64,000 nt of DNA from a virus: IMG/VR virus record IMGVR_UViG_3300022602_000029, positions 129,747 to 193,746 of that record. One strand, given 5' to 3'. The notes under the pieces are model-generated. The model saw only the letters and a program-made list of their open reading frames with translations. It was not told where the DNA came from and made no database searches. The position numbers were made by a program, and so were the translations under genes. Below, piece by piece: positions 1 through 21,888 of this stretch (within the stretch, counting starts at the first letter, position 1; every line of letters starts with the position of its first letter).

Positions 1-2
1 TA

Positions 3-299
3 ATGAAGATGGATGAGCAGTATGATTTCAAGTATTATCAAAACATATTTAATCCTGGAAGCTATGACAAATGTCAGCCTTGTGATCTTAAGCAGGTATG
101 TAACGCAGGATGTACCTACAGCCAAGTTATGAATGATAATAAACCTTTAGATTCAGTTTGTGAACTATTTCACATCTATTATGAACAGGCTATGAGAGTA
201 GTAGCCGCATGTAGGAATGAACCTATCTTCCAAGACCTAATATTACATTACATTGAAAACGTAGGTGTAGAATCAGAAGGTGTAGAATGCAGGAACTAA
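3..299 (+). CDS. C-terminal SPASM-like part of a probable radical SAM protein (gene likely begins upstream of the window)
   Basis: CQPCDLKQVCNAGC is a Cx2Cx5Cx3C SPASM-type cluster motif followed by ...SVCELF; the ORF abuts the window edge. Confidence 0.7.
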   Translation: MKMDEQYDFKYYQNIFNPGSYDKCQPCDLKQVCNAGCTYSQVMNDNKPLDSVCELFHIYYEQAMRVVAACRNEPIFQDLILHYIENVGVESEGVECRN

Positions 300-604
300 A
301 AAAGAAAACCTATCGCAGTTTGGCAAGTATTCCTGTCAAGGTAGAGATGCAGCCCGTTGAACATGCTACTGATCGTGTATTGACTACAGAAGAACTACAA
401 GAGCAGATAGAAGAAGCACGTAAAGGCAAGGCCAAGGTAGATAGTAAGTATGTAGGTTTCGAGTTAGATGAACGCGGACATCTATTTGAATATAAACTAG
501 ACTATGTTTCTTTTTTATCCGATATGAGTTATATCATCAAAGAAGCTAAAAAGAGACCAAAAGAAAACAGATACAAAAATACTCACGAGATGATTATACA
601 ATGA
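287..604 (+). CDS. hypothetical protein in radical SAM cluster
   Basis: 105-aa ORF overlapping both neighbours (ATGA coupling at 601); no recognised motif. Confidence 0.6.
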   Translation: MQELKKKTYRSLASIPVKVEMQPVEHATDRVLTTEELQEQIEEARKGKAKVDSKYVGFELDERGHLFEYKLDYVSFLSDMSYIIKEAKKRPKENRYKNTHEMIIQ

Positions 605-1494
605 TACCCATCATACAGGAAAATCCAGGATTAGGTTTCTATGTAGGAGATTCTACAGATAAACCCACACCTGTAGGGTCTGGTGTGAATGTAATCTATT
701 TTACGAATAAATGTAATCTGGCCTGTACCTACTGCTATGAAGATCTTCCAGGTCGTCCTCCGCAGATAATGACGCGAGAAGATATACGTAAATCAATAGA
801 TATGATATTATCCAGAGAGAATCCTGATAACCAGACCTTGATAGTATTATTTGGAGGAGAAGCTACTCTAGAATGGGAAAATGTCTGCTACTGCATGGAG
901 TATGCCTACAGTAAAAAGACTAACATACACTTTAATCTCACTACTAATGGTATAAAATATCTCAGTCAAAAGTTTATCGACGAAACTAAAACTAACTTTT
1001 TCTACAGTATGGGCCTATTAAGCATAGATATCAGCTTTGATGGTGTTGGTAATGGGGACAGAGTATTCCACAACGGATCGGATTCTACCCTTTCTATGAT
1101 CAGAGTTTTTGGAAATCTCTTGAAGAATAACGTGAAGTTTAGGATAAGATACACTATGCATCATAGAAATATCAATAATATCTATGAAGATATATCTATG
1201 ATCATCAATAAGTTCCGTCCTACGAGATTAATCACCAGTGTAGCCTGGGATACATTACAAGACGGTGATAGATCTAAACTAGAGTCAGCAAAAGAACTGT
1301 TCAGAAAAGACTGGATAAATAAAAAAATAACTATTCCTGTCTGCGAATTCTTTTGTGATATGTGTAGCGGATGCGGAGAGAGGAAAGAATTGAAAACATA
1401 CTACACAGATGAAGGTAACGTAACTACTTATGGTAACTATGAAAACGCTCCAAAGTTCCATGATTTTAAAGAAAAGGTAACAATATGTCAGTAA
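601..1494 (+). CDS. radical SAM protein (anaerobic sulfatase-maturase/peptide-maturase-like)
   Basis: CNLACTYC (CxxxCxxC, nt 712-735), FGGEA, TTNG, ISFDG; short C-terminal CEFFCDMCSGC cluster. Confidence 0.9.
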   Translation: MIPIIQENPGLGFYVGDSTDKPTPVGSGVNVIYFTNKCNLACTYCYEDLPGRPPQIMTREDIRKSIDMILSRENPDNQTLIVLFGGEATLEWENVCYCMEYAYSKKTNIHFNLTTNGIKYLSQKFIDETKTNFFYSMGLLSIDISFDGVGNGDRVFHNGSDSTLSMIRVFGNLLKNNVKFRIRYTMHHRNINNIYEDISMIINKFRPTRLITSVAWDTLQDGDRSKLESAKELFRKDWINKKITIPVCEFFCDMCSGCGERKELKTYYTDEGNVTTYGNYENAPKFHDFKEKVTICQ

Positions 1495-1859
1495 TCGAAA
1501 AAATGAACCAAATAGCGTCTCTGATAGGTGAGATCAAACAGGAAGATGAAAATGCTGGAAATCTTCTGGCAGAAGGGTTTCTTCTATCAGCTAAACTAAT
1601 GCAGGAGATAACAGAAGCTGGAAATAGAGACAAGATTGATATTTCAGAACATTTAGCGATGATCGGAAGAGTTTTTGGTTTCACCGTGGAAGACCTAGTA
1701 AAATTTGTATTACAGAATAACTTCCAAAGCGTCGAATCAGACAAAGAACCTGATCCGGCCACATTAGAATTTATAACCAGCGATCTAGACGACTATGAAA
1801 AATTCTTAGCACAGAATAAAGCAAAGGAAGACCTAGATTTCCTATCTAAGGAGATTTAA
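1485..1859 (+). CDS. hypothetical acidic helical protein
   Basis: 124-aa ORF coupled between the rSAM gene and the Cys-rich gene; supplies the AAGGAG RBS of the next gene. Confidence 0.65.
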   Translation: MSVIEKMNQIASLIGEIKQEDENAGNLLAEGFLLSAKLMQEITEAGNRDKIDISEHLAMIGRVFGFTVEDLVKFVLQNNFQSVESDKEPDPATLEFITSDLDDYEKFLAQNKAKEDLDFLSKEI

Positions 1860-1861
1860 AA

Positions 1862-2650
1862 ATGACCTATTGTTCTTGCCTAGCCTGCGGTTCAGTTTGC
1901 TGTAACGCCACTGGCGGGGGTACTTGTGGACCTCAAGGATGTTGTGCTTCCTACGCTACAGCCTCATTAAGTTATAGTACAGGTATATGTGGCGCCGGAA
2001 GTTGTTCCTACACACCTACTTCTCTATCAGGAGTGATCTGTGGAGCTTGTTTTTGCCAACTATTGACTAATGTCTGCTGTGAAATGTGTAGAAGGAATCG
2101 TAGTGCTCCTAGCGGATGGGGACAGAGTAATCCTATTAATCACTCTGATTTTAACAGTTTGGTAAACTATATCAACCAATCTAGTTGTTGGCCTGCCGCT
2201 TGCTATCAAAGCTATTGTAATGGTAGTACGACTCCATGTAGTCAATCTAGTGCTGGAGCTCCATCGGGGGTTCCCGCAAACGCTAACGCAGGAGATGTAA
2301 TTTATAGTAGCTGTATAAATGCCTTAGTCAGCGCCATAGTTACTGCTGGTAATGCCTGTACCTGTAACTGCAACTACTGTACATGTAACTGCAACTACTG
2401 TACCTGTAACTGTAACTATACATGTACCTGTAACTGTAACTACAGTGATATCAGATTGAAAAAGAATATCAAACTATTGAAAACTATTAAGGGTATAAAC
2501 ATCTACAGTTTTAACTATGAATGGGATGACACAGAACAGATAGGAGTGATGGCACAAGAATTATTAGAATCAGGACATGACTATGCTGTCACTACAGATT
2601 CGAATGGGTTTTATATGGTTGATTACAGCAAACTACCAGTGAAGATGTAA
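1862..2650 (+). CDS. Cys-rich virion/fibre-like protein with C-terminal peptidase S74 intramolecular chaperone
   Basis: 33 Cys in the first 194 aa; residue 195 begins SDIRLKKNI...GVMAQEL...VDYSKL, the S74 chaperone signature; strong RBS aaggag. Confidence 0.85.
   Translation: MTYCSCLACGSVCCNATGGGTCGPQGCCASYATASLSYSTGICGAGSCSYTPTSLSGVICGACFCQLLTNVCCEMCRRNRSAPSGWGQSNPINHSDFNSLVNYINQSSCWPAACYQSYCNGSTTPCSQSSAGAPSGVPANANAGDVIYSSCINALVSAIVTAGNACTCNCNYCTCNCNYCTCNCNYTCTCNCNYSDIRLKKNIKLLKTIKGINIYSFNYEWDDTEQIGVMAQELLESGHDYAVTTDSNGFYMVDYSKLPVKM
2357..2443 (+). repeat. 4 x 21-bp coding tandem repeat encoding CTCNCNY
   Basis: tgtacctgtaactgcaactac-type units at 2357, 2378, 2399 and 2423, with one extra Thr codon before unit 4; in frame, with synonymous variation. 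Confidence 0.97.
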
Positions 2651-2659
2651 GGAAGTAAA

Positions 2660-3058
2660 ATGGATTATAAAGAAGTAGAAGGAATAGATGCTAACACATA
2701 CGCAGGTAAAGCCGCTCAGGCCTGTAAGGTAAAAGCGAGAGGTATATTGGGAGATGATCTTTTAACTTTTAAACTTATTGATTTTGTATCATTTATTATG
2801 ATAAACAATCGGTTTTTAAATAAAGGGATTATCATAACTGATGAAAACAAAGAAGAAGGATATATCAAGATTATAGAAACAGGAGATGAATCTCTAATAT
2901 CCGATCTAGAAAAGTACCTAGATCTTAGGGATAGTATTAAGAGTATAGAAAATTCTAAGAATGAATACTCTGATATCATCAATAAACTTAAATCATTGCA
3001 GGATCATAATGATAGAGATTCAGTCAATGCTATAGTCGAAGAATATCTAAGACGATAA
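2660..3058 (+). CDS. hypothetical protein, possible partner/chaperone of the Cys-rich protein
   Basis: 132-aa helical ORF with RBS aaggaag directly after the Cys-rich gene; role inferred from position only. Confidence 0.6.
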   Translation: MDYKEVEGIDANTYAGKAAQACKVKARGILGDDLLTFKLIDFVSFIMINNRFLNKGIIITDENKEEGYIKIIETGDESLISDLEKYLDLRDSIKSIENSKNEYSDIINKLKSLQDHNDRDSVNAIVEEYLRR

Positions 3059-3074
3059 GTTATAGGAAAAATCA

Positions 3075-4082
3075 ATGTTAATAATAGTAAATACGATCGA
3101 TTCAATCAATAGAAATCTTATAGGATTACGACTATTAGAAACATTCAACGACTTTAAGATAGACAACTTGACTGTGAAGATTGAAGGAATGGCCAGCAGT
3201 TTAACTAACTATGTTCTATATAACGAACAAGGATCAATAGTATATCCTACAGAACCAGTTGATACAGATGCTTTGGAAAAACTTATATCTTTCCAAAACG
3301 ATAGACTGTCAATAACTAGATCAGACCTACTAATCAAATTAGATTTTGCTTCTGTTGAGCATGATTATGGAATATTAAATAATCCTATCATGGAAAATCT
3401 AGATCAACCGTTAAACACTTACGAAGCTCAGTTAGATGCTTATCGTAATGATAGCAATAGTTGCAGAGTGATCGTTGGTATTTTTGGAAAATGGTTCATA
3501 GACAAGATGAGACAAGATATAGGAGCCGATAAGGTCAAGGTCCTAAATATTGTCAGGAATCCATCTGTTTGTTTTGTCTTAAATCAGACTCAAAATAAAC
3601 AAAACGATCTATTTAAAGAATATAAACATTTAAGAAAATCAATATTAAATGCCGTAAGTTTATCTAGATTTGATGATATCACCACAGTCAAGTTTGAAGA
3701 TATGTTATCATCAGGATCGATAATCTTTGATGGTGTTACTATCACATTACCTGAATCGTATCAAAACCATAATAATCTGTTGACAGCATACGAATATCAT
3801 AATCTGATATCTAAAGCTACTGATCAAAATCTAGATCAGTTTAACCAAGAGTATTCAAACTACGAATTAGATCATTTTGTAGATATTACCGCAGAAGAAA
3901 AAACACAACAGACTCCGCCTCCAATCGGACTTTACGGATTTGTAAAAATTAAAGATCATATCACTTTTACAAATCAAAAACTTGGATTAAATATTGCCGA
4001 GGAGACATTGACTCCTTTAAGCATGAACATTTTTACATCTCTCGGATATAATCCGTTATCACTTTCTCAAATATCTAGTTGA
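3075..4082 (+). CDS. hypothetical protein, weak sulfotransferase-like motifs
   Basis: KVLNIVRNP and VKFEDML resemble sulfotransferase 3'-PB and downstream motifs; no clear 5'-PSB loop. Confidence 0.4.
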   Translation: MLIIVNTIDSINRNLIGLRLLETFNDFKIDNLTVKIEGMASSLTNYVLYNEQGSIVYPTEPVDTDALEKLISFQNDRLSITRSDLLIKLDFASVEHDYGILNNPIMENLDQPLNTYEAQLDAYRNDSNSCRVIVGIFGKWFIDKMRQDIGADKVKVLNIVRNPSVCFVLNQTQNKQNDLFKEYKHLRKSILNAVSLSRFDDITTVKFEDMLSSGSIIFDGVTITLPESYQNHNNLLTAYEYHNLISKATDQNLDQFNQEYSNYELDHFVDITAEEKTQQTPPPIGLYGFVKIKDHITFTNQKLGLNIAEETLTPLSMNIFTSLGYNPLSLSQISS

Positions 4083-5023
4083 GATTTAAAAATATCGAGC
4101 AGTACAAAATGTCTAAGATATTTAATCTCAAGCAATATGATCTAGTCTTCACTACTTCGTTTTATATCAAACACGGAGTGTCTGGACACATGTATGAGTT
4201 GATTGATTATTATTATATTTGTAAAAAGTCTGGAATCAACTGTGCTATCCTTTTAGCAGACGGCGTTGACAAACAAACATTTTTCAATGCGATCAAATAC
4301 AAATACAACTTTGACATAGATATCCTAAAGGATACACACCAATGTCATAACCCTAGAATTATTAGAACTAAGAATATCTGCATCGTAGATGGTTCCTGGA
4401 GAGTTAATGACTGTACAATATATGCAGACAACGCATTCTTATTAAGATGCTCAGAAGACGACTATACTTGGTTTGATACCAGTAAGTCAATTAAGCAAAC
4501 ACATCTTATGCAGGACTTTAAACTGTATCCAGAACGATACCGAGACTTAAACATTAAGGTTGTTGATTATGTTAAGAAAATACTTTGGAGCAAATATGTA
4601 CAGCCCAAACCGACTAATAACGATACCGGTTTGTTTTATCTAACAACTAACTGTAGAGCAATCCCTGCAGAAGAAGTTAAAGCTATTATGGATAAGGGTA
4701 TATGTACAAATTATATTATAGTCACTGACCGTCCTAATCTTTACCAACCTCTGTTGGCTGATAATGTATCTATAGCACAGGCTCCATTACAGAATATATT
4801 TGAACATTTTGACACCTACATATATACTAAGACAGAATTACAGTCTGATTGCAGTCCTAGGTTTATTGTTGAGTGTGCTATGTTTGGTAAAAACGTTGTT
4901 TACGAAATTGATTATCTATGCGCAGGTGTAGAACGTAGAAAACAGGACATAGATGCAGACTTATCAAGTTTAGAATTAACTACAGATGATTACTTTGTAG
5001 AATACGTAAAACAGTTTATATGA
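4079..5023 (+). CDS. putative GT-B-like glycosyltransferase (start TTG 4079 or ATG 4109)
   Basis: C-terminal DCSPRFIVECAMFGKNV resembles the GT-B nucleotide-binding segment; N-terminal HGVSGH loop. Confidence 0.45.
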   Translation: MRFKNIEQYKMSKIFNLKQYDLVFTTSFYIKHGVSGHMYELIDYYYICKKSGINCAILLADGVDKQTFFNAIKYKYNFDIDILKDTHQCHNPRIIRTKNICIVDGSWRVNDCTIYADNAFLLRCSEDDYTWFDTSKSIKQTHLMQDFKLYPERYRDLNIKVVDYVKKILWSKYVQPKPTNNDTGLFYLTTNCRAIPAEEVKAIMDKGICTNYIIVTDRPNLYQPLLADNVSIAQAPLQNIFEHFDTYIYTKTELQSDCSPRFIVECAMFGKNVVYEIDYLCAGVERRKQDIDADLSSLELTTDDYFVEYVKQFI

Positions 5024-6072
5024 TACCTATTAGAACAGAGTCCAATCATCTCGCTGAATTAAGTTCCGCAGGGCTAGAGCTTGATCTTATAACACAACCC
5101 TGTGTTCGTGCTAGATTAGATACAGGTACATTTTGTAATTACGACTGTGAGTTTTGTTACTACAGAGATAAACTAGATGTTAAGACAGAGTTTGATATTG
5201 TAAAAGAACGTGCAGACTATTTGCTTGCCTACGGTATCAAACAAGTAGACCTAAGTGGAGGAGAAAGCTCTGTAAGCCCTGATTGGTTTAAGATACTAGA
5301 CTATTGTAATGAACGCTTTGAACACGTTAGTTGCCTAAGTCACGGAGGTAGATTTGCCAATATTGAATTCCTACAGGAGTCAATGGAGCATGGACTAAAA
5401 GAAATCTTGTTTAGCCTACACGGAGCAACAGCAGAAACACATGATGCTATTACCAATCGTAAAGGATCCTTCAAACGTATCCTTCAAGCAATCAAGAATG
5501 CACAAGAGCTAGGATGTGTAGTACGAATTAACTGTACTGTCTATCACAAGAACTATCATCAACTGGTAAACATCTATGCTGACCTAATTAATGGAATCAA
5601 ACCTTTAGAAGTTAATTTTATTACATTAAACTATTGGGATGATGTTTACATTGATAATGTTACCTACAAAGATATGACTGACAACATTAAAAGTTGTATT
5701 GATATCTTAGACAAGGGTATGATCATCAATGTCCGTTATGTGCCTTATTGTTACATGAAAGGCTATGAGAAATATGTGTGTGATCAATATCAACACATAT
5801 ACGATATCTATGATTGGAATAAGGAAATGTATTCTAATGTGATTGATGTTAGTAAAACCTATACACAGGAACAAAAGATACAGTTTGCCTATGATGCTTG
5901 TAAGAAGTTTCGTGCTAGGTTTTATCGTAAACAAGTTGATTGCCTGAAGTGCAAACACTTCTATATTTGTGATGGTATTGAAAGAGAAATAGCTGACAAG
6001 AATCCTGTGTTTCCAGAAGCAGGAGATAAGATCAAACAGGTTAATTTTTATAGAGCAGTACATTTCAAATGA
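5020..6072 (+). CDS. radical SAM protein with C-terminal Cys cluster
   Basis: CNYDCEFC (nt 5134-5157), LSGGES, SLHG, C-terminal CLKCKHFYICDG. Confidence 0.9.
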   Translation: MIPIRTESNHLAELSSAGLELDLITQPCVRARLDTGTFCNYDCEFCYYRDKLDVKTEFDIVKERADYLLAYGIKQVDLSGGESSVSPDWFKILDYCNERFEHVSCLSHGGRFANIEFLQESMEHGLKEILFSLHGATAETHDAITNRKGSFKRILQAIKNAQELGCVVRINCTVYHKNYHQLVNIYADLINGIKPLEVNFITLNYWDDVYIDNVTYKDMTDNIKSCIDILDKGMIINVRYVPYCYMKGYEKYVCDQYQHIYDIYDWNKEMYSNVIDVSKTYTQEQKIQFAYDACKKFRARFYRKQVDCLKCKHFYICDGIEREIADKNPVFPEAGDKIKQVNFYRAVHFK

Positions 6073-6680
6073 AACTGTCTATATTAATTCTTACACACAA
6101 TCGTCCTAAATTATTCAAACGTTGTTTGGAAAGTGTTCTCACACAGATAACTCCAGAAGTTGAAGTGTTGGTTAATAATGACAGTTGCGATATTGAAGAG
6201 ATTGTTCATTCGCAGGTACAATATTTTTATAACAAGTTTGATAGCCTATGTGAGATATATCAATTCCTACTATCAAAGGCGCAGGGAACCTATGTGTACT
6301 ATTTAGAAGATGATGATTATCTTGTTACTGATTTTCTAGAACAAACATTAGATGCAGATTTGATTGTTGGTAATTACTGTCCTAAATATGCAACAGAAGA
6401 CATGCTGACTTTTATGACTATGTATAACAACAACAGAGTAACATCGGCTGAGTTTTTATCTAATCTTAATACAGAACATCTGCAACTATCGCAACACATA
6501 TACAAGCGTGAACATATAGTAGATTTTAATTTTCCAAATGACAGTAACGTACACAACGATATTAAACTAACAATACACGCGGCTAACAAAGCAAGGGCTA
6601 TTAGAACAGTAAACAAAGTGTTTTACTTTCAAACAATAGATGGTGGAGATAATATCTCTTTTCCTAAACATGAACTATAG
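6069..6680 (+). CDS. glycosyltransferase family 2-like (GT-A)
   Basis: LSILILTHNRP...CLESVL N-terminus, VNND, YYLEDDD acidic motif. Confidence 0.8.
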   Translation: MKLSILILTHNRPKLFKRCLESVLTQITPEVEVLVNNDSCDIEEIVHSQVQYFYNKFDSLCEIYQFLLSKAQGTYVYYLEDDDYLVTDFLEQTLDADLIVGNYCPKYATEDMLTFMTMYNNNRVTSAEFLSNLNTEHLQLSQHIYKREHIVDFNFPNDSNVHNDIKLTIHAANKARAIRTVNKVFYFQTIDGGDNISFPKHEL

Positions 6681-7572
6681 CAAGCAACATCACATCGACC
6701 AAGACCCTGATCATATCAACGTGCATTGGGATGTTCTTACGATCTGTCAGTTAAAGTGTAGCTATTGTTATGCTCGTAATGAGTATGGAAAGAAGTGGGG
6801 TAAGCTGGGCAGTCGTGAAATCGCCGACGGAGTATTAGAAGCACTGAACAGAAGTAGCTTACCATTTAACCTAGGATTGTTGGGCGGAGAGCCTACACTA
6901 AGCCCGCACTATTATTACATCTTAAATCGTATTAGTGAGATGGAAAAGTTTAATAAAGTTTATGTTGTAACTAATGGAGAAAAGGACTTTGCTACGCACC
7001 CAGACTATGAAAAGATTGCTTTCTTGTTTAGTTATCATCCTGCTGATTGTACAAATAGGGATCGGTTTGTTTCTAATGTAAAACTAATGAAGGATCGTGG
7101 CTATAAAGTTAAAGTTAACGTAATGTTACATCACGGCAAGCAGTATTGGCCATTGATCAAAGAAATGTTTGAAATATGCGATGCTATAGGTGTCAAAGCA
7201 CATCCACACTTTATATATGGTAAAAGTGTACACCAACTGTTTAACTATCGTAAAGCCTTTTGGGATTACTTTAGTTTCTTAAAAGAAAGAGACAGAGAAC
7301 TAGTCTATGGCGATGAACTTAAGAACGATTACGAAATCTTTAGCGAACGTCTAACAAACTTCGAAGGCTGGAGTTGTTACAACAACAACTATGAGCTAGA
7401 TGTCTACGGTCAAGTGATTAAGTTCTGCTTAGACAATGAGCGTAAGAGCCTTCTTGAGAATCCAGACTTCTTTAAAAACATAACCAAGACCGTACCTATG
7501 ACATGCCCTCACAAGGCCTGCAACTGTGATGGCTTACTCAAACAACTTAAGGTGAATCCAAATGCAAGTTGA
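6670..7572 (+). CDS. radical SAM protein with short C-terminal Cys-rich domain
   Basis: CQLKCSYC, LGGEPT, VTNG; C-terminal GWSC...FC...CPHKACNC; start moved to the coupled ATG at 6670. Confidence 0.88.
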   Translation: MNYSKQHHIDQDPDHINVHWDVLTICQLKCSYCYARNEYGKKWGKLGSREIADGVLEALNRSSLPFNLGLLGGEPTLSPHYYYILNRISEMEKFNKVYVVTNGEKDFATHPDYEKIAFLFSYHPADCTNRDRFVSNVKLMKDRGYKVKVNVMLHHGKQYWPLIKEMFEICDAIGVKAHPHFIYGKSVHQLFNYRKAFWDYFSFLKERDRELVYGDELKNDYEIFSERLTNFEGWSCYNNNYELDVYGQVIKFCLDNERKSLLENPDFFKNITKTVPMTCPHKACNCDGLLKQLKVNPNAS

Positions 7573-8308
7573 ATGGGAAGTCACAATGAAGTGTAACTAC
7601 AACTGTTACTATTGCTCTAACCTAGACAAGAGCATACACCATATCACTGATCACGAAGTCCTGCGCAACTTTATCAAAATTTTGGGAGAAACTTATCCAG
7701 GTGTGGAGATATTCCTGTTTGGAGGAGAGCCATTTGTGCATCCTGAAATAGGTTTCATCATTAAATGCTTTAACGAATTTAATATTCCATTTGTAATACA
7801 AACTAATCTAAGCAAATACAGTATTGAAGTTATGAAAACTATCGATTCTCCTTATATACTACAGGCTAGCATACATCCTACAGAAATATCACACCAAGAC
7901 CTCGAAGACATCCTTAAAGAAAATATCGTATGTAGAGTTGTTGATGTAATGTTCAGTGGCAAGGAAGCCTTGTGGTACTATTTTAAAGTAAAAGAAAGCA
8001 CAACTGGTAAAGTATATCTTACTCCAGTTACAGATTTTGGAGATGGCCGCAGTGATACCGCTTTACAGGAATACTTGAGTTTAAAAAATGATCCTAACTA
8101 TAATAAGATAATAAAATTTGAGGAAATAGAAAGGCTAGGCAAGCCTAGATCAGAACTGTGGGCTACAATATCCTTTAGTCCTAAAGGAAAGCCCTGTCTA
8201 TACAAAGACAAATACTTTCTGTACAGTCCACAACTAGAGATGTACAACTGTTGCTATAGAATTAAAACGGACGGCATCTGCCCAAAAAGCAAATGCTTCT
8301 TAATGTAA
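7562..8308 (+). CDS. compact radical SAM protein
   Basis: CNYNCYYC, FGGEPF, QTNL; C-terminal PCLY...NCCYR...CPKSKC. Confidence 0.88.
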   Translation: MQVEWEVTMKCNYNCYYCSNLDKSIHHITDHEVLRNFIKILGETYPGVEIFLFGGEPFVHPEIGFIIKCFNEFNIPFVIQTNLSKYSIEVMKTIDSPYILQASIHPTEISHQDLEDILKENIVCRVVDVMFSGKEALWYYFKVKESTTGKVYLTPVTDFGDGRSDTALQEYLSLKNDPNYNKIIKFEEIERLGKPRSELWATISFSPKGKPCLYKDKYFLYSPQLEMYNCCYRIKTDGICPKSKCFLM

Positions 8309-8748
8309 TGTTTAAGAATATATTTGACGGATACTCGGAAGCAATATCAAATGGCGCAGAAACTACGCTAGCATTCATATTGGATAACAAAAGAGCTATT
8401 GTTAATGAAGTAGGGTTTTTTGGATTTAAACAGTTTACCTTAAACTATCGTATATATTTTGATAACAAACGCAAAGACAGAATAATAAAAGACCTACACA
8501 AATATGTGTTAAGTAAAGAAGAGGAACATAAGAGCGACCTAGCAATAGGACATAATGCTATTACCAAACTACACTTGCCAAGAGAGTTAGAAATACAGAT
8601 TGTTGAATTTATGTTTGATCGTATGAAAGACACATATCTGGTAAAGTATAAACATCTTGAAAATTTACCTAACTCATTTGTTGTTAAAAAGCATTTAGTA
8701 ATAGATTATGTCTACACAAAGATTCTAAGAAAGAAGGAGATAAGATGA
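8308..8748 (+). CDS. hypothetical protein
   Basis: TAATG-coupled start at 8308; basic 146-aa ORF. Confidence 0.6.
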   Translation: MFKNIFDGYSEAISNGAETTLAFILDNKRAIVNEVGFFGFKQFTLNYRIYFDNKRKDRIIKDLHKYVLSKEEEHKSDLAIGHNAITKLHLPRELEIQIVEFMFDRMKDTYLVKYKHLENLPNSFVVKKHLVIDYVYTKILRKKEIR

Positions 8749-9557
8749 GATACTTAATTGCCGGAGCATTTAGCAAGTCAATTCCTATAATCAAGTTCCT
8801 TGGACAGCGTATTGTAGACAGCACACAGTTAGTTGTCTATGACGGAATCAATAAATGTCGTTGGAATGGAGGACGCATTAATAGAGATGTTTATTACAAA
8901 GACTCTCTTATCGACTATTATTACAGTAAAGGTATTAGTATCGCATTAACATTTAGTAATCATAAGATTAACATTGATGATCCTTTAGGTAATGAGTTAT
9001 TGAAAAAGTTTCATAGGAAAGGCAATGCGCTTATTATCATCAATGATGATCTGCGTAGACATGTGCGTGAGAACTTTCCTAAGTACGATTTAATCTACAG
9101 CATTACAGGTATGGGCTTACTCAATATTCCATTGCAGGATGAAGATATTGCTTTTTATAAACAACTTGAACAAGATTATGACTGGATAGTTCCTCGATTT
9201 GAGCATATATTTGATCCTCGATCCTCTGAGCTTGACAAAACCAAATGGGAAGTTATGTTAAACGATACATGTGTTTATGGGTGTAAACATTGGGACGAAC
9301 ATTTTAAGGCTATCGCAGATGAAAACACTGCTGGCCGTCCTTACAGCAAAGAAGTAGAAGAGTGTTGGTTACCAAAGTTTGATTTTAACAAAGACAGCAA
9401 ATATGAATGCATGGATATCAAACCAGAGGCCATGCGCAAGTTACTAGAATCTGGAGTCAAAAGTTTCAAGATTACAGGTAGGGAAATGACTGATGAGGAA
9501 TACTATGGTGAGTTGACTAGATTTGTAGATCGAAGCTTGACGGCACTAAAGGAATAA
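8745..9557 (+). CDS. U32-family (UbiU/UbiV/TrhP-like) protein
   Basis: WNGGRINR, LNDTCVYGC, later Cys residues (ECW, ECM) and FKITGRE, resembling the U32 K-x-x-G-R motif. Confidence 0.65.
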   Translation: MRYLIAGAFSKSIPIIKFLGQRIVDSTQLVVYDGINKCRWNGGRINRDVYYKDSLIDYYYSKGISIALTFSNHKINIDDPLGNELLKKFHRKGNALIIINDDLRRHVRENFPKYDLIYSITGMGLLNIPLQDEDIAFYKQLEQDYDWIVPRFEHIFDPRSSELDKTKWEVMLNDTCVYGCKHWDEHFKAIADENTAGRPYSKEVEECWLPKFDFNKDSKYECMDIKPEAMRKLLESGVKSFKITGREMTDEEYYGELTRFVDRSLTALKE

Positions 9558-9570
9558 GATATAATAACAT

Positions 9571-10644
9571 ATGGCAGACTGGAAAAAACTAAAGATAGTT
9601 AGAGATAAAGAGGACATGCAGGTCGGGCAGATTAGACCGATGCGTTCTTATAACGTGCTCAGCGAAATAGAACAGGGCGGTATTGACTATGACTATATGG
9701 TTACTTTCCGTATCACAGAAGCTTGCGATCTAAAGTGTAACTACTGCCATTGGCATAGCGGAGCACATTACAAATATGAAGACATCATAACCACTATTGA
9801 TAGATTATTTGATTTTTTTATCAAACAAGATTTTAAATCTGTACTATTTTATTATCATGGCGGAGAACCTACTCGACATCCTAGATGCCTAGATATCCTA
9901 AAATATATACACCAAAAAGGTATAGACAAAGGAATAGATGCCTATAACGAGATGCAGACCAATCTTACCATTAAAGAAGATAAACTTCGTGCTATGCTCC
10001 CTTATTGCGATCAGTTTAATGCCAGTTTTCATTATTTAGAATTAAAAAGATTAAACAAACTTAAAGACTTTGACCACAACTGGGAAGTTATTAAGCAGTT
10101 AGAAATACCTATCCATAATATGGATATAATGATGGAGAATGTTGAACGAGGGGATAGATGGTATCAAGGTAAGACTGTAGAGGTCATACCTGAAGAGTTT
10201 TATAATAAAGTAGTCGATTATCTTAAGTATGACAAGATCCAAAACTGCGAGATGATCTATGGATTTTGCCATTATGTTTATCCGGAAGATGTAGCCGAAA
10301 AGCATATGGCATTTTATAAACAGCATAACAAAACAGAACAACGATACGAGATAGATGATATTATATATACCACCAACGACCTATTCAAACTAGGTATAGA
10401 TGCACGCGGATGGAAATGTGCGGCAGGTCAGGAATCTATCACTATCAATGGAGATGGTAATGTTTTCCATTGCGGAATACATATGACAAATTTTATACGT
10501 GATAGCCAGCCCGAGACTCCTTATACCAATCTAGTTAATGACAAACTCGCGATCACCAAACTATCAGTGCTGTATAAAACAGGTACTATCTGTCGCTGGG
10601 ATTATTGTGGCGGAGATTTCTATCTCAGTAGGGGCCCAAAATGA
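9571..10644 (+). CDS. radical SAM protein with C-terminal Cys-rich domain
   Basis: CDLKCNYC, HGGEPT, QTNL; C-terminal GWKCAAG...FHCG...CRWDYC. Confidence 0.9.
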   Translation: MADWKKLKIVRDKEDMQVGQIRPMRSYNVLSEIEQGGIDYDYMVTFRITEACDLKCNYCHWHSGAHYKYEDIITTIDRLFDFFIKQDFKSVLFYYHGGEPTRHPRCLDILKYIHQKGIDKGIDAYNEMQTNLTIKEDKLRAMLPYCDQFNASFHYLELKRLNKLKDFDHNWEVIKQLEIPIHNMDIMMENVERGDRWYQGKTVEVIPEEFYNKVVDYLKYDKIQNCEMIYGFCHYVYPEDVAEKHMAFYKQHNKTEQRYEIDDIIYTTNDLFKLGIDARGWKCAAGQESITINGDGNVFHCGIHMTNFIRDSQPETPYTNLVNDKLAITKLSVLYKTGTICRWDYCGGDFYLSRGPK

Positions 10645-11234
10645 AAACCATATCATTATTTCCTATAGATGTTTATACTAAGAAAATAGATGTCGACTGG
10701 AACCAATCTCAGATATTAGAAAGACTAGACAGGTATTTTCTAGATCAAAAACATAACGGAGTAGTGGATAATGATCTACATAAGGAAGTTTTGTTCAAAC
10801 CCCTAGTAGAATTTATGGATGTGGCTGTTGCTGAATATTGGAAAATATTAGACTACGATACTGGATATCCAGTATCGATAAGTCAGCTTTGGGCGAATAG
10901 ATATGACCAGGGCGATCTCTATCCTCATAATCTGGACAATGATAGTCCTGCTATCGTAACCTGCGTATTCTATGTTAGCAAGGATTCTGCAGAACAAGGC
11001 AATCTGTTTTTCGGAGACCCTAACCATTTATTGATTAAGACACAACCGCTCAGTACTAATCGTAGGTACCAGAGCCAACCGGAGTTCGATGGAAGGACTG
11101 GGGACCTAATCTGTTTCCCGAGCTGGCTACAGCATGGCATAAAACCTAATCACACTGATATCCCTAGACTGTCTATAGCGGCTAACTATGAGCTTAAAGG
11201 TTTGAATACGATTAAAAAGGCTATGACCAAATGA
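10641..11234 (+). CDS. 2OG-Fe(II) oxygenase-like (phage TIGR02466-type)
   Basis: WANRY...PHN...CVFY...FPSWLQH...RLSIAAN double-stranded beta-helix pattern. Confidence 0.75.
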   Translation: MKTISLFPIDVYTKKIDVDWNQSQILERLDRYFLDQKHNGVVDNDLHKEVLFKPLVEFMDVAVAEYWKILDYDTGYPVSISQLWANRYDQGDLYPHNLDNDSPAIVTCVFYVSKDSAEQGNLFFGDPNHLLIKTQPLSTNRRYQSQPEFDGRTGDLICFPSWLQHGIKPNHTDIPRLSIAANYELKGLNTIKKAMTK

Positions 11235-11809
11235 AAGTAAAACTAACAGGATGGAATGGATTCCTTTCGACCAAACTGAGAGAAAACAATAGCATAGAAT
11301 GGGTAGACGATGGTCTATGTGATATACTCTTTCTCATGGGAGGACCTACATTCACAGAGAGCGAGTTAGGACAACATGATGCACAGGTAATGCATCAATA
11401 CGTACGAGAGACGATAAAGATCATAGATAGATTTCCAGGGCATATTATTTTTGCTAGTTCAACAGGAGTAGATGATATTAGATTGGATCACAAAGGATCT
11501 ACCTGTTATAATCTAGCTAAACTGTATTTAGAAAACTATCTTATTAATAACACCGATCGATATACTATCTTGAGGATAGGAACTATTATATCAAACTCTC
11601 TCGATGATATAGCTAAGATGAAATCTGACCGGATCCAACCGCAGATACAGAATGGTATATTTCCGTCTGAATGGGAAGATTACTATTTGGACATCGATCA
11701 GTTTGTAAATACAACTATAGATGTTATCCTTGGCGAGACTTATGGTATTGTAGAATATCCCTTGATTAAACTAACGACAGCACAACTAACTAAAATGAGC
11801 AAAAAATGA
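11231..11809 (+). CDS. short NAD-dependent epimerase/dehydratase-like protein
   Basis: TGWNGF, FASST, YNLAK (YxxxK), ILRIG. Confidence 0.65.
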   Translation: MKVKLTGWNGFLSTKLRENNSIEWVDDGLCDILFLMGGPTFTESELGQHDAQVMHQYVRETIKIIDRFPGHIIFASSTGVDDIRLDHKGSTCYNLAKLYLENYLINNTDRYTILRIGTIISNSLDDIAKMKSDRIQPQIQNGIFPSEWEDYYLDIDQFVNTTIDVILGETYGIVEYPLIKLTTAQLTKMSKK

Positions 11810-12687
11810 TAAACGTCAAAATCGGAGGAGCAGTACAAAAATATGAATTGATATTGTTGTGGAATATCAAAAATAAAACTCTGATTAAAGATCTCCAGGT
11901 TACTTATTATGACATGCCTAATAACTGTGCATGGAATGGTGGACGTGTGAATCGCACTATCGACTTGACTGAAAAAATCGTTTCTACCTATAATAAGTTT
12001 AAGTATGGAATATGTTTAGGATTCACAAATAATGTTATATTAGATGTCGGTGATGAAATAGGAAATATGTTATTAAAAATGGTAACAGGTGAAAACAATC
12101 CTAACAAACTACACGGAGTCGTTTTATGTAGCGAGACATTGCGTAGGTACCTTCGTAAGAATTATCCGGAGTTAATATTAACCTATAGCATAACAGGACA
12201 CCCTACGACTGATCAGTTGAACTTCGAGGGATATTACAAAGAGCTCGAAGCCAAATATGATGTCATTGTTCCTAAATATAGTCATTTGAATAATGTCCTT
12301 GACCTATTAGAAGCAGGCAAGCTAACCGGTAGCAAATATGAAATATTAATCAATGATAACTGTAACGTTACTTGCCAGTTCTATTCCGAGCATTTCGCAC
12401 AGATATCACACTTGAATAGTTCTATAAAACATCCTTGGGAAGAAGATCATGAAAGGTCATACCATATAGAGATCAAACCAAAGATCAAGGCAGGTCCTAT
12501 CACTAAAGAAGCTAACTGCGTACAAGATGATGTGAGAGTATCTCTACTACAGAGATTTTATGATACAGGAGTTAGGCATTTTAAGATAAGTGGAAGAGAT
12601 CTAGAAGATATAGAATTTGAACACAGGTTGCCTGAACATCTTAGAGAGATACAAAAAATTGAAGTACGCAATAATCTTCTCAGTTGA
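11806..12687 (+). CDS. second U32-family protein (paralog of 8745-9557)
   Basis: WNGGRVNR, GFTN, INDNCNVTC, ANCV, FKISGRD. Confidence 0.65.
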   Translation: MINVKIGGAVQKYELILLWNIKNKTLIKDLQVTYYDMPNNCAWNGGRVNRTIDLTEKIVSTYNKFKYGICLGFTNNVILDVGDEIGNMLLKMVTGENNPNKLHGVVLCSETLRRYLRKNYPELILTYSITGHPTTDQLNFEGYYKELEAKYDVIVPKYSHLNNVLDLLEAGKLTGSKYEILINDNCNVTCQFYSEHFAQISHLNSSIKHPWEEDHERSYHIEIKPKIKAGPITKEANCVQDDVRVSLLQRFYDTGVRHFKISGRDLEDIEFEHRLPEHLREIQKIEVRNNLLS

Positions 12688-13456
12688 GAATAATAATGAT
12701 GTAACCTATGAGAAGATGTCCATAGCGTTAGCCTGTAGTATAAGAGATTATCTACCCGACATCGATATCTACTGCGGAACCTTCACTAATCCGGTAACGT
12801 CATATACACGTCTGTGGTTCCATAGATTAAAAGTAAAATATATAGAAGATTTAATCTTTAAGGATTTGCCTCCCGCTAATCCTAAGATGTTCCTACGGAC
12901 ATTTACCAAAGACTATTTTGCCAAAAAACTTTTAGATCATTATGACTATCTAATATATCTGGACGTAGATGTATTGATGTTAGGTATTCCAAACTTTGAT
13001 TTTGATCCTACTGGTCCTATGGTACTAGTGGATACTATGCCTAACTGGATAGTAAACTTCCATAGACGATACCTAGATGATTTAGAGGAAAGTCTCTACT
13101 ATAACTGGATAGAAATCATCAACCAACACAACAAAAAAATATTTGATCTAGATTATAAAGATCCCTATGTGTTAGATATACATAATGCTGATGTTCTAAT
13201 ATCTAATAGGATCAATAGTTCTAACTTAATCTTGATAGAACAAAATATAGGAGGATATCATTGCGCAAAAATATCCAAACCTACACATGTTTTTTATCAC
13301 TATGACTCACTAGGCGATGCGGGTAGTTTACATAACATAGAAAGCACACATCCTGTCCAATATCAAAAATATTTAAAACTATTTGAAGAGACCTTAAATA
13401 TCAGGGTAATATCTATAGTTGGTTATTGGGAAAAAGTAGCAAAGGAATATTCATGA
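12659..13456 (+). CDS. putative GT-A-like glycosyltransferase (start uncertain, TTG 12659 or 12617)
   Basis: YEKMSIALACSI...YLIYLDVDV (DxD motif), GT8-like layout. Confidence 0.5.
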   Translation: MKYAIIFSVENNNDVTYEKMSIALACSIRDYLPDIDIYCGTFTNPVTSYTRLWFHRLKVKYIEDLIFKDLPPANPKMFLRTFTKDYFAKKLLDHYDYLIYLDVDVLMLGIPNFDFDPTGPMVLVDTMPNWIVNFHRRYLDDLEESLYYNWIEIINQHNKKIFDLDYKDPYVLDIHNADVLISNRINSSNLILIEQNIGGYHCAKISKPTHVFYHYDSLGDAGSLHNIESTHPVQYQKYLKLFEETLNIRVISIVGYWEKVAKEYS

Positions 13457-14151
13457 ATCTAAGAGAAGAACTGCTCAGGCACAGTTATAAGTACCGATTG
13501 ACACATATAGCTTCTGCTCTATCCCAGTTAGATTATCTAGAAGAACTGTTTACGAAACAACTAGTTGTTCCTTATAGAGATAAAATTGTTATAGGAAAAG
13601 TTTTTGGAGGGCAATCTTATTTCCTGGTTTGGAAAAAACTAGGTTACCTAGATAACTTACCTAATCTTGAATGCTTACCTGTAGTTAAACATGATGAAAT
13701 ACCTTTCATTGATTTCGCTGAGTTTTCTATAGGAAATGCTTTGGGTGTAGCAGCCGGTATAGCAATGACAACAGATAAAATGATTTGGACTAATATATCA
13801 GATAGTGCCCTACAGATGGGCAATACACTAGAAGCCATACAGTTTTGTGGTCACAATAGATTAAAAAACATGTTAGTCACAGTTGATATGAATAATGGAC
13901 AGGTAACAGGAAAGACCGAAGATATATTACCTGTAGAACCTGTAGTTGATTTTTTTAGAAACTATGGATGGGATGTGAATTTTGATCTAGAAAACTTCAA
14001 AGTAGGAGATCGCCCTAAAGTATTCATTTTAAGGAATAAAAAAGGCAAGGGTATTAAATCGATAGAAAAGGATATAAGGAAATGGCATTACAAGAAAATA
14101 GAAACATACGCAGAATTACAATCGTTGGTGGAGGAACTTCGGGATACCTAG
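13453..14151 (+). CDS. transketolase-like N-terminal (TPP-binding) subunit, divergent
   Basis: THIASALS, SIGNALGVAAGIA, SDSALQMG..LEA...VDMN (GDG..N-like), KWH; coupled ATG at 13453. Confidence 0.75.
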   Translation: MNLREELLRHSYKYRLTHIASALSQLDYLEELFTKQLVVPYRDKIVIGKVFGGQSYFLVWKKLGYLDNLPNLECLPVVKHDEIPFIDFAEFSIGNALGVAAGIAMTTDKMIWTNISDSALQMGNTLEAIQFCGHNRLKNMLVTVDMNNGQVTGKTEDILPVEPVVDFFRNYGWDVNFDLENFKVGDRPKVFILRNKKGKGIKSIEKDIRKWHYKKIETYAELQSLVEELRDT

Positions 14152-15353
14152 CCGCATTTTATCTATCTAAAAACTATCCTGAAAAAGAAATCACTTGGAT
14201 ATTTCCAGAAGAAAATAATCCCATTGGAGTCGGAGAAGCGTTGGTTCCTAAAAGTAGCGATTTTCTATTGTCTATAGGAATTAGTCATAAAGATATTTTA
14301 AAATACTGTAATGGAACTTTAAAGCTAGGAATACTTTTTGATGGATTCAATAAAAAAGGAGAGGATTTCTTTTTTCCTTTTGGTATTGGAGTAGATGATA
14401 AACACAACGGGTCTAGCATCAACTATATCATGCAGAAAGATCTAATACCTGATACTATATTAGAATATAGAGATATGGCCACACATTTTAATACTGTAGA
14501 GTTCGCAAAATATCTAGATACAAAGACACATGAGCTCGATAATCTTAAAATACTAAGAAATGAAGTAACCCTAACTGACTTAGAAGGTACATATGATCTA
14601 TTGATAGATAGCACAGGATTTAAAAGACATATGAGTAAACAACCGGATAACTTTGAGGATATAAGTCATATCATTCCAAATAATCGGGCGTTGACCTGTA
14701 GAATCAAATACACTGATAAAAGTAAACAATGTAAACCATACAGTCTATTCAAAGCTATGGATTATGGATGGTGTTGGCATATTCCTTTAGGAGATAAGTT
14801 ATCTTTTGGATATGTCCACGATAATAAGTTCGATGTAAGAGAAGAGTTTATTTCTCATGTTAAAGACTATATGGGTATCGATCCTTTAGAAATAAATGTG
14901 ATTGACTTTATCACAGGAAGAAATAAAGTGCACCTCAAGGATAATATCGTGAGCATCGGTCTCGCTAGTACTTTTGTAGAACCGATAGAATCTACAGGTA
15001 TATATCTGATAATATCAGCTATAGAAAGATTAAAACTCTATATCGATGGAGGAATAACAGAACATGAATATAATCTACAAACCAACGAAACATTTGATGG
15101 CATAGTTAACTTTATTGCGGCACATTACAAATATTCTAAGAGAGATAACGAATATTGGAATCATTATAAAAATCTAAAGGTTGAAAATTATAAAGAGACT
15201 AGGTTATTTCCTGTAGAAGCATGGAGATATGTCCTTAGTGGATTTGGATTGAATGAATATCCTAAAGAAAGCATGGATCCTAGAGAGTTCATTAACATAC
15301 AGAAAGGAACTCCTTATGTGAAATGGTTAGAAAGTATAAGGAGTGAACCATGA
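14082..15353 (+). CDS. tryptophan-halogenase-family flavin-dependent halogenase
   Basis: GGGTSG, GVGEA, TLKLGI (catalytic Lys), WCWHIP (WxWxIP), FVEPIESTG. Confidence 0.88.
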   Translation: MALQENRNIRRITIVGGGTSGYLAAFYLSKNYPEKEITWIFPEENNPIGVGEALVPKSSDFLLSIGISHKDILKYCNGTLKLGILFDGFNKKGEDFFFPFGIGVDDKHNGSSINYIMQKDLIPDTILEYRDMATHFNTVEFAKYLDTKTHELDNLKILRNEVTLTDLEGTYDLLIDSTGFKRHMSKQPDNFEDISHIIPNNRALTCRIKYTDKSKQCKPYSLFKAMDYGWCWHIPLGDKLSFGYVHDNKFDVREEFISHVKDYMGIDPLEINVIDFITGRNKVHLKDNIVSIGLASTFVEPIESTGIYLIISAIERLKLYIDGGITEHEYNLQTNETFDGIVNFIAAHYKYSKRDNEYWNHYKNLKVENYKETRLFPVEAWRYVLSGFGLNEYPKESMDPREFINIQKGTPYVKWLESIRSEP

Positions 15354-15832
15354 GAAAAACCCTTCACAAGTTGTTATCGAGATTAAATCATCCTGATGTT
15401 TATCTCCTGCATTCCGATATGTGGAAATGGGATAATACAAAATATAATTGTATTAACTGCGGGGTACAAGAACCCAATATGGTTAATATGGCCGCGGGTC
15501 TAGCTAGCCAGGGTAAGACTGTGTTCGTCTATGGAGTCTGCGGTTATGTTCTCTATAAATGCTATGAGCAGATGAAATATAATGTACGAGGTTGGGCTGA
15601 CACCAAAGGATCTGTGATATTTGTTAACGCAGGACATAACGGGGCGTATGCCCATCAAGGAAAGGGCGGATTCATTCCAGAAGATGCTGATTTATGCACT
15701 CTATTACAAATACCTGTTTATACTCCTGAAGATCGAAGTACCTTTGTAAAATATGTAAAAGATTCTATTAGACAACCTCACGGATCTCGCCTCATAAGAT
15801 TAGGATGGGATGATGAAGTATGGAAGAAGTAA
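15350..15832 (+). CDS. transketolase-like pyrimidine-binding subunit, truncated
   Basis: GVQEPNMVNMAAGLA, CYEQMK, IRL; only 160 aa, lacks the C-terminal domain. Confidence 0.75.
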   Translation: MRKTLHKLLSRLNHPDVYLLHSDMWKWDNTKYNCINCGVQEPNMVNMAAGLASQGKTVFVYGVCGYVLYKCYEQMKYNVRGWADTKGSVIFVNAGHNGAYAHQGKGGFIPEDADLCTLLQIPVYTPEDRSTFVKYVKDSIRQPHGSRLIRLGWDDEVWKK

Positions 15833-20398: not shown

Positions 20399-20409
20399 GA
20401 GTACTTCCA

Positions 20410-21078: not shown

Positions 21079-21079
21079 T

Positions 21080-21757: not shown

Positions 21758-21888
21758 TGAAACTACGCAAACTAAGAAAAAAACTATATAAGGCTATCTT
21801 TAAACATGATCTAGCCAAAGAGAAAAAAGTTTGGTTTAAGATCCTTAAGAAGTCCGTTCGACATAAACATACAGAGGATATTAGATAA
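21757..21888 (+). CDS. 43-aa basic peptide (not in ORF track)
   Basis: MKLRKLRKKLYKAIFKHDLAKEKKVWFKILKKSVRHKHTEDIR; TGATG-coupled upstream and TAATG-coupled to iscU. Confidence 0.7.
   Translation: MKLRKLRKKLYKAIFKHDLAKEKKVWFKILKKSVRHKHTEDIR

Follow-up and report, generated by a model that had tools for sequence, protein, structure and literature searches.

The 64,000-nucleotide stretch of DNA analyzed here (the window; positions 129,747 to 193,746 of the IMG/VR virus record IMGVR_UViG_3300022602_000029) begins with a gene cassette that combines radical S-adenosylmethionine (rSAM) enzymes, most similar to thioether-forming peptide maturases, with a 262 amino acid (aa) protein that carries four cysteine heptads, CTCNCNY, followed by a chaperone domain of the S74 family. 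We propose that the heptads of what would be a chaperone-folded virion protein receive thioether-type crosslinks from the rSAM enzymes, so that the locus would represent a maturation cassette resembling those of peptides synthesized ribosomally and then modified post-translationally (RiPPs); we give this interpretation an even chance of being correct. A preliminary description of the window, made from the sequence alone, had listed a SPASM-type gene tail (3-299), an rSAM gene (601-1494), and a 262-aa protein with 33 cysteines within 194 residues, four heptads and an SDIRLK junction leading into an S74 domain. All these elements are present as listed, and the operon coupling of the rSAM and cysteine protein genes also stands, given that the genes of the cassette overlap or are separated by gaps of 2 to 10 nucleotides, which fits a single operon.

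Conserved coupling of the heptad gene to radical SAM genes

The 193.7-kb record contains seven rSAM genes, and every one of them is located within 12.5 kb around the heptad gene. Enzymes of the rSAM type, typically 7 to 11 and clustered within 10 kb of the heptad gene, are encoded in 41 of the 46 viral records that contain a heptad relative. In a second, largely independent sample of metagenome, GTDB genome, NCBI and ENA contigs, consisting of 36 loci in which the sequence upstream of the heptad gene extends for 4 kb or more, an rSAM gene is found within 6 kb in 35 loci and two or more in 32; the same cassette is found in NCBI and ENA assemblies. Thus, the linkage suggested in the preliminary description, which was expected to fail if homologs commonly occurred without rSAM neighbors, holds in both samples. 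An internal control comes from the remaining two S74 genes (loci L001 and L002; genome positions 59950-66520), which encode ordinary long proteins of 792 and 1132 aa and have no rSAM neighbors.

After clustering of the neighboring open reading frames, the surviving core comprises two or three rSAM enzymes of one family, the heptad gene, a 132-aa protein and a 270-314-aa protein. The gene order is A-B-8-C-9-CYS in the loci of the window type (A, B and C are the rSAM clades described below, 8 and 9 are clusters of small proteins, and CYS is the heptad protein) as opposed to B-x-C-A-CYS in distant loci, and the flanking regions are unrelated. These differences indicate that the coupling exceeds frozen synteny and that the set has been kept through rearrangement.

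The cysteine heptad protein and its family

All 33 cysteines of the 262-aa protein fall within residues 1-194, with 21 in residues 1-165 and 12 in the heptad block, where Tandem Repeats Finder detects a period of 21 with 4.0 copies. The four 21-bp DNA copies differ at synonymous sites only, suggesting that the peptide is what selection keeps constant. A search of 5.8 billion proteins identified 680 relatives at E <= 0.001, of which the 120 best were aligned. These proteins share a common plan, with a variable N-terminus followed by the motif ERxRRG, a helix INxLIxxIxxAG, the heptads and the motif SDxRLK, and 106 of them contain exactly four heptads with one extra residue ahead of the last copy. 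In this alignment, the cysteines in positions 1, 3 and 5 of the heptad are invariant or at least 90% conserved; 504 heptads were matched by a pattern that itself fixes Cys at these three positions. N (D, Q) in position 4, N (D) in position 6 and Y in position 7 are all near-invariant, with Tyr7 as invariant as the cysteines, and the variable position 2 is occupied by T, L, V or S. Each heptad includes two C-x-x-[N/D/Q] motifs, C1-x-x-N4 and C3-x-x-N6.

The preliminary description had emphasized the total of 33 cysteines. This overstates the feature because only the 12 heptad cysteines are conserved among close homologs, 95 of the 120 having no Cys ahead of the heptads; the 21 N-terminal cysteines are thus a local peculiarity of this phage. 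We considered the N-terminal cysteines as additional C-x-x-N/D/Q/E sites and rejected this possibility given that 3 such motifs are observed and 2.8 are expected, which is no enrichment.

Distant lineages in IMG/VR reach 25 heptads and 90 cysteines and possess tandem paralogs, in three and four copies. The extreme relatives are a 346-aa protein with 90 Cys and about 25 heptads (L025:5265-6305) and a 356-aa protein with 83 Cys (L032:9515-10585); another, a 252-aa protein with 54 Cys (L027:9650-10408), is encoded in a 43.8-kb contig that contains no rSAM gene. Some distant lineages (L016:9815-10372, L024:9875-10486, L015:9290-9865 and L014:9473-10129) carry N-terminal Cys/His motifs, MAC.GH.NSC..H.GY and repeated GCHS.N.T, that are absent from the subfamily of the window.

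In the AlphaFold2 model of the monomer, built from the 120 sequences, the mean predicted local distance difference test score (pLDDT) is 73, and the body (residues 55-165, three helices) and the S74 domain (residues 195-262) are predicted with confidence. A Foldseek comparison of this model with the PDB yields no match at E <= 0.001, and the best VIA-align hit in a wide search, with a Z score of 5.2, is at chance level for helical models. Prediction of a homotrimer (three copies of the full protein, 120-row alignment) gave a score of 0.00 and a fold pLDDT below 50 and carries no weight either way. Searches of GenBank phage records with the gene or with positions 1-8000 of the window (tblastn and megablast) returned no match, for which the low-complexity filter is possibly responsible.

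Radical SAM enzymes related to thioether maturases

The rSAM enzymes adjacent to the heptad gene match PF04055 with 42.5 to 51.6 bits, the lowest value belonging to clade C (gathering threshold 29.5). A quick maximum-likelihood tree of 76 adjacent rSAM enzymes resolves into three deep clades (Shimodaira-Hasegawa-like approximate likelihood ratio test support 96-99), each of which includes one member from nearly every lineage, and the CX3CX2C motif is conserved in 92-100% of the members of each clade. In clade B, this motif occupies residues 12-19, and the SPASM cysteines C250, C268, C300, C303, C309, C313 and C329 are all 100% conserved, the pattern CX2CX5CX3C...C being kept in 25 of 25 clade members. 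Clade A, the only one that matches the Pfam SPASM family, has seven SPASM cysteines at 96-100% conservation. In clade C, the CX3CX2C motif is located at residues 38-45, the 7-Cys SPASM motif is not found, and there are only four conserved auxiliary cysteines, 248, 252, 255 and 258 (CX3CX2CX2C).

The best NCBIfam model for all three enzymes is that of the PapB ranthipeptide maturase (NF047865; 127, 71.6 and 80.8 bits with E-values of 9e-37, 6e-20 and 1e-22, respectively), followed by the SCIFF, CcpM, CXXX-repeat and Cys-every-fifth maturases. The CrpC family model, TIGR04463, is not among the best 25 of the 51-58 NCBIfam hits obtained for each rSAM enzyme. The best solved relative is CteB, the SCIFF thioether synthase (5WGG, E-value 3.5e-16), with the alignment covering both the rSAM and the SPASM parts. 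Thus, the likeness to RiPP enzymes noticed in the preliminary description is borne out, and the nearest relatives are thioether RiPP maturases. The heptad motif C-x-x-[N/D/Q] is of the same type as the motif of CrpA, a known acceptor of ranthionine links, and is therefore counted in favor of thioether formation.

The same enzymes could also act on the same substrate by other radical chemistry, namely formation of a Tyr-to-carbon cyclophane link (within the Y7-C-T triad), formation of a sactionine (at the alpha-carbon), oxidation or epimerization of Cys, or three different reactions catalyzed by the three clades. The retention of three non-redundant rSAM clades everywhere, the different auxiliary motif of clade C, the invariance of Tyr7, and matches with similarly low scores to the NCBIfam models for cyclophane (YhhB), sactipeptide and anSME enzymes all speak for this alternative. 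However, both the top-scoring models and the best solved relative belong to the Cys-thioether enzymes, and the C-x-x-N/D spacing agrees with the CrpA precedent, so that we consider other chemistry unlikely.

Another possibility is that the heptads are a metal or iron-sulfur (Fe-S) array that stabilizes a trimer axis or stores and delivers clusters for the phage rSAM enzymes, without any modification of the protein by the latter. The tip of T4 gp37 contains HxH-iron sites along the trimer axis, and with the CxCxC spacing of the heptads, three thiols would point to the same side of a strand. The N-terminal C-x2-H-x3-C-x2-H motifs of distant lineages, the lack of C-x-x-N/D enrichment among the 21 extra cysteines of this phage, the investment of the phage in Fe-S supply and the failure of AlphaFold2 to fold the heptads without ligands also speak for such a role. 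Nevertheless, a metal array leaves unexplained why three rSAM enzymes resembling peptide maturases are always adjacent while other rSAM enzymes come and go, and why N4, N6 and Y7 are as conserved as the cysteines; moreover, a dedicated IscU and two IscA-type carriers are already encoded in the genome. We regard this explanation as quite unlikely.

The S74 chaperone and its variants

The Pfam Peptidase_S74 family matches residues 195-236 with 34.4 bits (cut-off 22), directly after the heptads, and the domain begins with the junction S195-D-I-R-L-K200. The Ser-Lys junction (SDxRLK, with the Ser nucleophile and a Lys five residues on) is invariant in 119 of 120 close homologs, and S195, D196, R198 and K200 are invariant across the 120 aligned sequences. 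The domain is modeled with pLDDT of 87-95, and its fold matches are weak: the intramolecular chaperone auto-processing (ICA) domain of MyRF (7dc3; Z score 3.3, 53 aligned residues, 23% identity) and 3gud (Z score 3.1).

The S74 domain is fused to the heptads in the nearest relatives only. In several lineages, the protein stops 12 residues past the last heptad (SDxRLKxxIxY[MLF]), and the next gene encodes a protein of 88-103 aa that matches the Pfam S74 profile from position 16-20 to position 55-57 of 58, with an added C-terminal helix. In these lineages, the chaperone is thus split, with the Ser-Lys strand staying on the substrate; such split genes present a natural test case for folding chaperones acting in trans. 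One separate S74 gene comes after three or four tandem heptad paralogs. In other lineages, the protein ends exactly at ...CNCNY(S), with no S74 domain, and in two longer proteins, P0125 (463 aa) and P0129 (851 aa), what comes after the heptads is not S74 but a sequence resembling the start of a Hint/intein domain, C[IF].(A)GT.V. In P0125, the Hint_2 family of Pfam scores 27.2 bits, just below its cut-off of 28.4. Such a Hint-like segment would give the heptad repeat another type of C-terminal domain able to remove itself, besides S74. The heptad block is the constant element of the family, with the removable C-terminal domain as the variable one.

The repeated retention of the chaperone, even as a split gene, suggests that the heptad block needs folding, probably as an oligomer. 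The S74 domain on the cysteine protein, one of the marks of the system in the preliminary description, is thus genuine and nearly invariant at its junction among close homologs, but it is neither essential nor defining given that it is split or absent in many lineages.

Evidence for a possible place in the virion

S74 domains are otherwise known from fibers and spikes, and all S74 matches in PHROG are tail fiber, virion or ejection proteins. There are contigs in which collagen-like tail-fiber genes immediately precede the heptad gene, an arrangement that is counted in favor of a virion role: in L017, L018 and L111, the preceding gene encodes a collagen-like tail-fiber protein of 2007 aa. In L027, the neighbors of the heptad gene encode proteins of 530-760 aa, whose matches to tail and tail-fiber PHROG profiles are confined to the N-terminal part of these profiles.

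The IMG/VR records that encode a heptad relative include those of the Campylobacter phages CP21 and CPt10. The CPt10 protein, CPt10_1891 (L030:9197-10801, 534 aa), consists of a helix, six C[LT]CDCNY heptads and a 200-aa Cys-rich C-terminal domain with further CxC motifs, and CPt10_1931, an rSAM enzyme of clade A, is encoded four genes downstream, among tail genes. In the original genome analysis, only a 21-bp intragenic repeat was reported for CPT_0180/CPt10_1891, and the 11-12 rSAM enzymes were viewed as metabolic helpers (Timms et al. 2010, PMC2853527). In phage IBB_35, gene 3-9, which is the ortholog of CPt10_1891 (1605 bp, 60.3 kDa, six heptads, located between a poly-dA region and RnlA), is listed among 38 virion proteins identified by tandem mass spectrometry, with 2.6% coverage (Carvalho et al. 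2012, PMC3322345, Table S2). This entry is the sole experimental hint of a family member in a virus particle. The annotation of the CP21 heptad protein as "putative N-acetylneuraminate pyruvate lyase" appears unfounded.

The trimeric virion fiber or tip envisaged in the preliminary description is therefore upheld in part: a distant member from a Campylobacter phage has been found in virions, but the protein of the window is not a classical long fiber, its body has no recognizable fold, and its gene is outside the structural block. A heptad-S74 module at the end of long tail fibers was considered and rejected: there are 9 hits among longer proteins, and the heptads occur in proteins of 463-851 aa that are not classical long fibers. 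It is very unlikely that the product is a released or intracellular RiPP-like effector, acting for instance against the host or a competitor, with S74 as a removable follower domain: the location of the gene in an auxiliary island, the small size of the protein, its body lacking a fiber-like fold match, and the lineages that end at the last heptad or have a Hint-like domain replacing S74 are in line with this role, but the known company of S74 domains, the presence of IBB_35 gene 3-9 in virions and the tail-fiber neighbors in some contigs all speak against it.

Proposed maturation pathway

Under the hypothesis of thioether crosslinking, the rSAM enzymes of clades A and B, with the full SPASM motif, and that of clade C, with the 4-Cys auxiliary motif, would act on the C-terminal (CTCNCNY)4 block of the neighboring 262-aa protein. 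Most likely, the sulfur of Cys would be joined to a carbon of the Asn or Asp located three residues on (C1 to N4 and C3 to N6), forming ranthionine-type thioethers. The S74 domain would fold, and probably trimerize, the stapled segment and would then cut itself off at S195, leaving a 194-aa chain that ends in the heptad block and would be incorporated into the virion. The glycosyltransferase-like protein of the GT-B fold and the 132-aa partner may contribute further steps, and the phage IscU and IscA proteins would provide the Fe-S clusters. What the analysis shows is the anatomy of the cassette, its conservation and its coupling in the genomes, and the presence of a distant relative in virions is taken from the literature. 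The action of the enzymes on the heptad protein, the chemistry, the order of the steps, trimerization and the role in the virion of this phage are all inferred.

Several observations weigh against this hypothesis. The scores of the rSAM enzymes are far below every curated cut-off (340 bits for PapB). Residue 6 of the phage rSAM enzyme aligns with residue 101 of CteB, the first 100 residues of which are its RiPP recognition element (RRE); the phage proteins begin at the rSAM motif and thus have no N-terminal RRE, and among the small neighbors there is no match to PqqD and no separate RRE-like protein in Pfam or PHROG. The heptad differs from the CX3D motif of PapB, and its third cysteine, C5, has no obvious acceptor. 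In the AlphaFold2 model, residues 1-49 and heptad residues 170-193 have pLDDT below 50, so that there is no confident structure of the heptads. The N-terminal Cys/His motifs of the distant lineages look like metal sites or a recognition leader, and the metal-like appearance belongs on this side. Heptad genes without any rSAM gene in the contig exist (L017, L018 and L111, and L027), all these contigs being fragments. Finally, the heptad gene of the window is located in a low-GC auxiliary island together with sugar-modifying genes, outside the structural block, and the evidence from virions amounts to one published entry, which concerns a distant relative that has no more than the helix and the heptads in common with the protein of the window.

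As candidates for the RRE function, the small proteins encoded between the rSAM genes were considered as adaptors; they produce no family hits, and the set from distant lineages aligns poorly, with 22% mean identity. The small protein encoded between two rSAM genes of one distant locus (L025:1947-2231) contains an acyl-carrier-protein-like DLGIDSM motif.

A stronger version of the hypothesis, which we hold to be somewhat doubtful, is that each of the three clades forms its own link, the heptads become polycyclic cages, and the trimer folded by S74 is a stapled virion tip resistant to proteases and reduction. If so, this would be the first virus structural protein enzymatically crosslinked by RiPP-type radical chemistry.

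Comparison with known systems and implications

The closest precedent is archaeal: in Methanococcus voltae, the large Cys-repeat protein CrpA, which contains C-X-X-Q/D motifs, receives ranthionine links from the SPASM rSAM enzyme CrpC (PMC13692751, 2026). As in the phage cassette, a SPASM rSAM enzyme (with three [4Fe-4S] clusters in the case of CrpC) is encoded next to the gene for a Cys-repeat protein rather than a short peptide, and the repeat region of CrpA is predicted, with low confidence, to form a beta-helix. However, CrpC/CrpA is a cellular system whereas the phage system is viral; CrpC is a single enzyme with an RRE whereas the phage possesses three rSAM enzymes without one; and the repeats of CrpA are 17 or 34 residues long and are not followed by a self-cleaving chaperone whereas those of the phage are heptads. 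The pairs PapB-PapA (freyrasin) and CteB-CteA (5WGG/5WHY) share with the phage cassette the 7-Cys SPASM motif and adjacent Cys-rich substrates but differ in that the phage enzymes score 72-127 bits against the cut-off of the PapB model and lack the N-terminal RRE. Furthermore, the presumed substrate in the phage, 194 aa in length, has a folded body, and its motif is C-x-x-N within a heptad.

The S74 domains of phage endosialidases, tailspikes and fibers (PF13884, 3GUD, 7DC3) are likewise C-terminal, with a Ser-x4-Lys junction, and the domain described here is confidently modeled. In the known proteins, the domain is preceded by a triple beta-helix or a coiled coil of ordinary composition, whereas here it follows a 29-residue block of Cys heptads, and in the sister lineages, either the substrate keeps a 12-residue stub and a separate gene encodes 88-103 aa, or S74 is missing altogether.

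The islands of the Campylobacter group II phages (CP220/CPt10, PMC2853527) and of marine T4-like phages (PMC5332604) are likewise found in T4-like genomes and contain 7-12 rSAM genes and phage Fe-S genes; in the Campylobacter group II phages, CPt10_1891/CPT_0180 shares the heptads and CPt10_1931 belongs to rSAM clade A. The marine genomes encode up to 12 rSAM enzymes along with IscU and A-type carrier genes, for which no substrate was named (Nishimura et al. 2017, PMC5332604). The 11-12 rSAM genes of the Campylobacter group II phages have lacked an explanation since 2010 and, like those of the marine phages in 2017, were filed as metabolic helpers. A full-text literature search for the repeat string and for crosslinking of structural proteins by phage rSAM enzymes found no description of the system and no link between such an enzyme and a substrate, in agreement with the preliminary description, to which no assigned substrate was known.

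The cassette offers a concrete, testable candidate for the substrate, and cultured phages with related islands exist (CP220, CPt10, CP21 and IBB_35). If the hypothesis is correct, the rSAM islands of Campylobacter group II phages, as well as those of marine and freshwater T4-like phages, would gain the substrate that they have lacked. It would also mean that RiPP-type radical crosslinking builds a protein of a virus particle, extending the single recent archaeal case of protein-level ranthionine links, and would give protein engineers three Cys-stapling enzymes that need no leader, together with a minimal target motif of 7 residues.

Layout of the cassette and the surrounding island

The window is the terminal 64 kb of a 193.7-kb record that is estimated by CheckV to be about 54% complete and contains a gp23 capsid gene of the T4 type (PF07068, E-value 3e-80). 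The GC content is 34-37% in the first 20 kb of the window, the low-GC island, versus 40-45% beyond. The features of the cassette and its surroundings are given in Table 1.

Table 1. Genes and domains of the cassette, phage Fe-S assembly genes, and separate S74 genes of related loci (window coordinates unless a genome or locus is named; L numbers denote related loci)
Feature	Coordinates	Strand	Comment
rSAM/SPASM paralog, clade A, 368 aa	genome 127827-128933		directly upstream of the window, outside the view of the preliminary description
rSAM/SPASM, clade B, C-terminal 98 aa with SPASM Cys motif	3-299	+	whole gene at genome 128921-130045, 374 aa
Cys-free acidic protein, 105 aa, cluster 8	287-604	+	lies between the genes of rSAM B and C
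rSAM, clade C, 297 aa	601-1494	+	PF04055, CX3CX2C plus 4-Cys motif
Helical acidic protein, 124 aa, cluster 9	1485-1859	+	directly upstream of the Cys-heptad gene
Cys-heptad protein, 262 aa	1862-2650	+	Cys-rich N-terminus 1-49, helical body 55-165, heptads 166-194, S74 195-262
(CTCNCNY)x3-T-CTCNCNY, proposed modification site	2357-2443	+	two overlapping C-x-x-N motifs per heptad
S74 intramolecular chaperone/auto-processing domain, S195...K200 dyad	2444-2647	+	Pfam, alignment, model
Conserved 132-aa partner, cluster 4, phrog_25260	2660-3058	+	in 33 loci, where it immediately follows the Cys-heptad gene or is one to three genes further along
335-aa protein, cluster 6	3075-4082	+	confined to window-type loci
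GT-B-fold glycosyltransferase-like protein, 314 aa, cluster 3, phrog_24441	4079-5023	+	present in 32 loci
Further rSAM genes	5020-6072, 6640-7572, 7562-8308, 9571-10644	+	conserved only in window-type loci
GT2	6069-6680	+	conserved only in window-type loci
IscA-type	21080-21406	-	phage Fe-S assembly, island edge
IscU	21888-22274	+	phage Fe-S assembly
IscA-type	22274-22609	+	phage Fe-S assembly
Split S74 genes	L013:11558-11824, L016:10385-10696, L024:10498-10779, L026:10332-10607, L036:11731-11997, L041:9914-10210		Pfam S74

The cluster 8 protein occupies the same position in all loci of the window type and has no match in Pfam or PHROG; possibly, it is an accessory or substrate-handling factor. 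The atlas look-up produced nothing usable for the 132-aa partner. For the 314-aa protein, there is no Pfam hit, and the look-up provided a weak glycosyltransferase lead that was later settled by the fold: the model (pLDDT 93) displays two Rossmann domains of the GT-B type, and all 33 PDB matches at E <= 1e-3 are GT-B proteins, including the protein glycosyltransferases SPY, OGT, HMW1C and GtfA as well as MurG and WaaG. The GT-B fold of this conserved neighbor suggests that glycosylation may belong to the pathway.

The phage Isc genes to which the preliminary description had alluded are indeed encoded, as IscU and two IscA-type proteins between positions 21080 and 22609 of the window. A sequence resembling the T4 late promoter, TATAAATA, is located at genome positions 127791-127798 (L004:11791-11798), 36 nucleotides upstream of the first rSAM gene and within the 38-nucleotide gap that precedes the cassette. 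Late expression gains no general support from this sequence, given that of 25 distinct loci from relatives, only 3 contain the motif.

The rest of the low-GC island (window positions 8293-21150) contains a mixed set of tailoring genes. These include a flavoenzyme resembling Trp halogenases (14082-15353), a transketolase in two pieces (N-terminal, 13426-14151, and pyrimidine-binding, 15350-15832), 2-oxoglutarate-Fe oxygenases, two epimerases/dehydratases, a CMP-sugar-type cytidylyltransferase, a PIG-L deacetylase, a polysaccharide deacetylase and a sulfotransferase.

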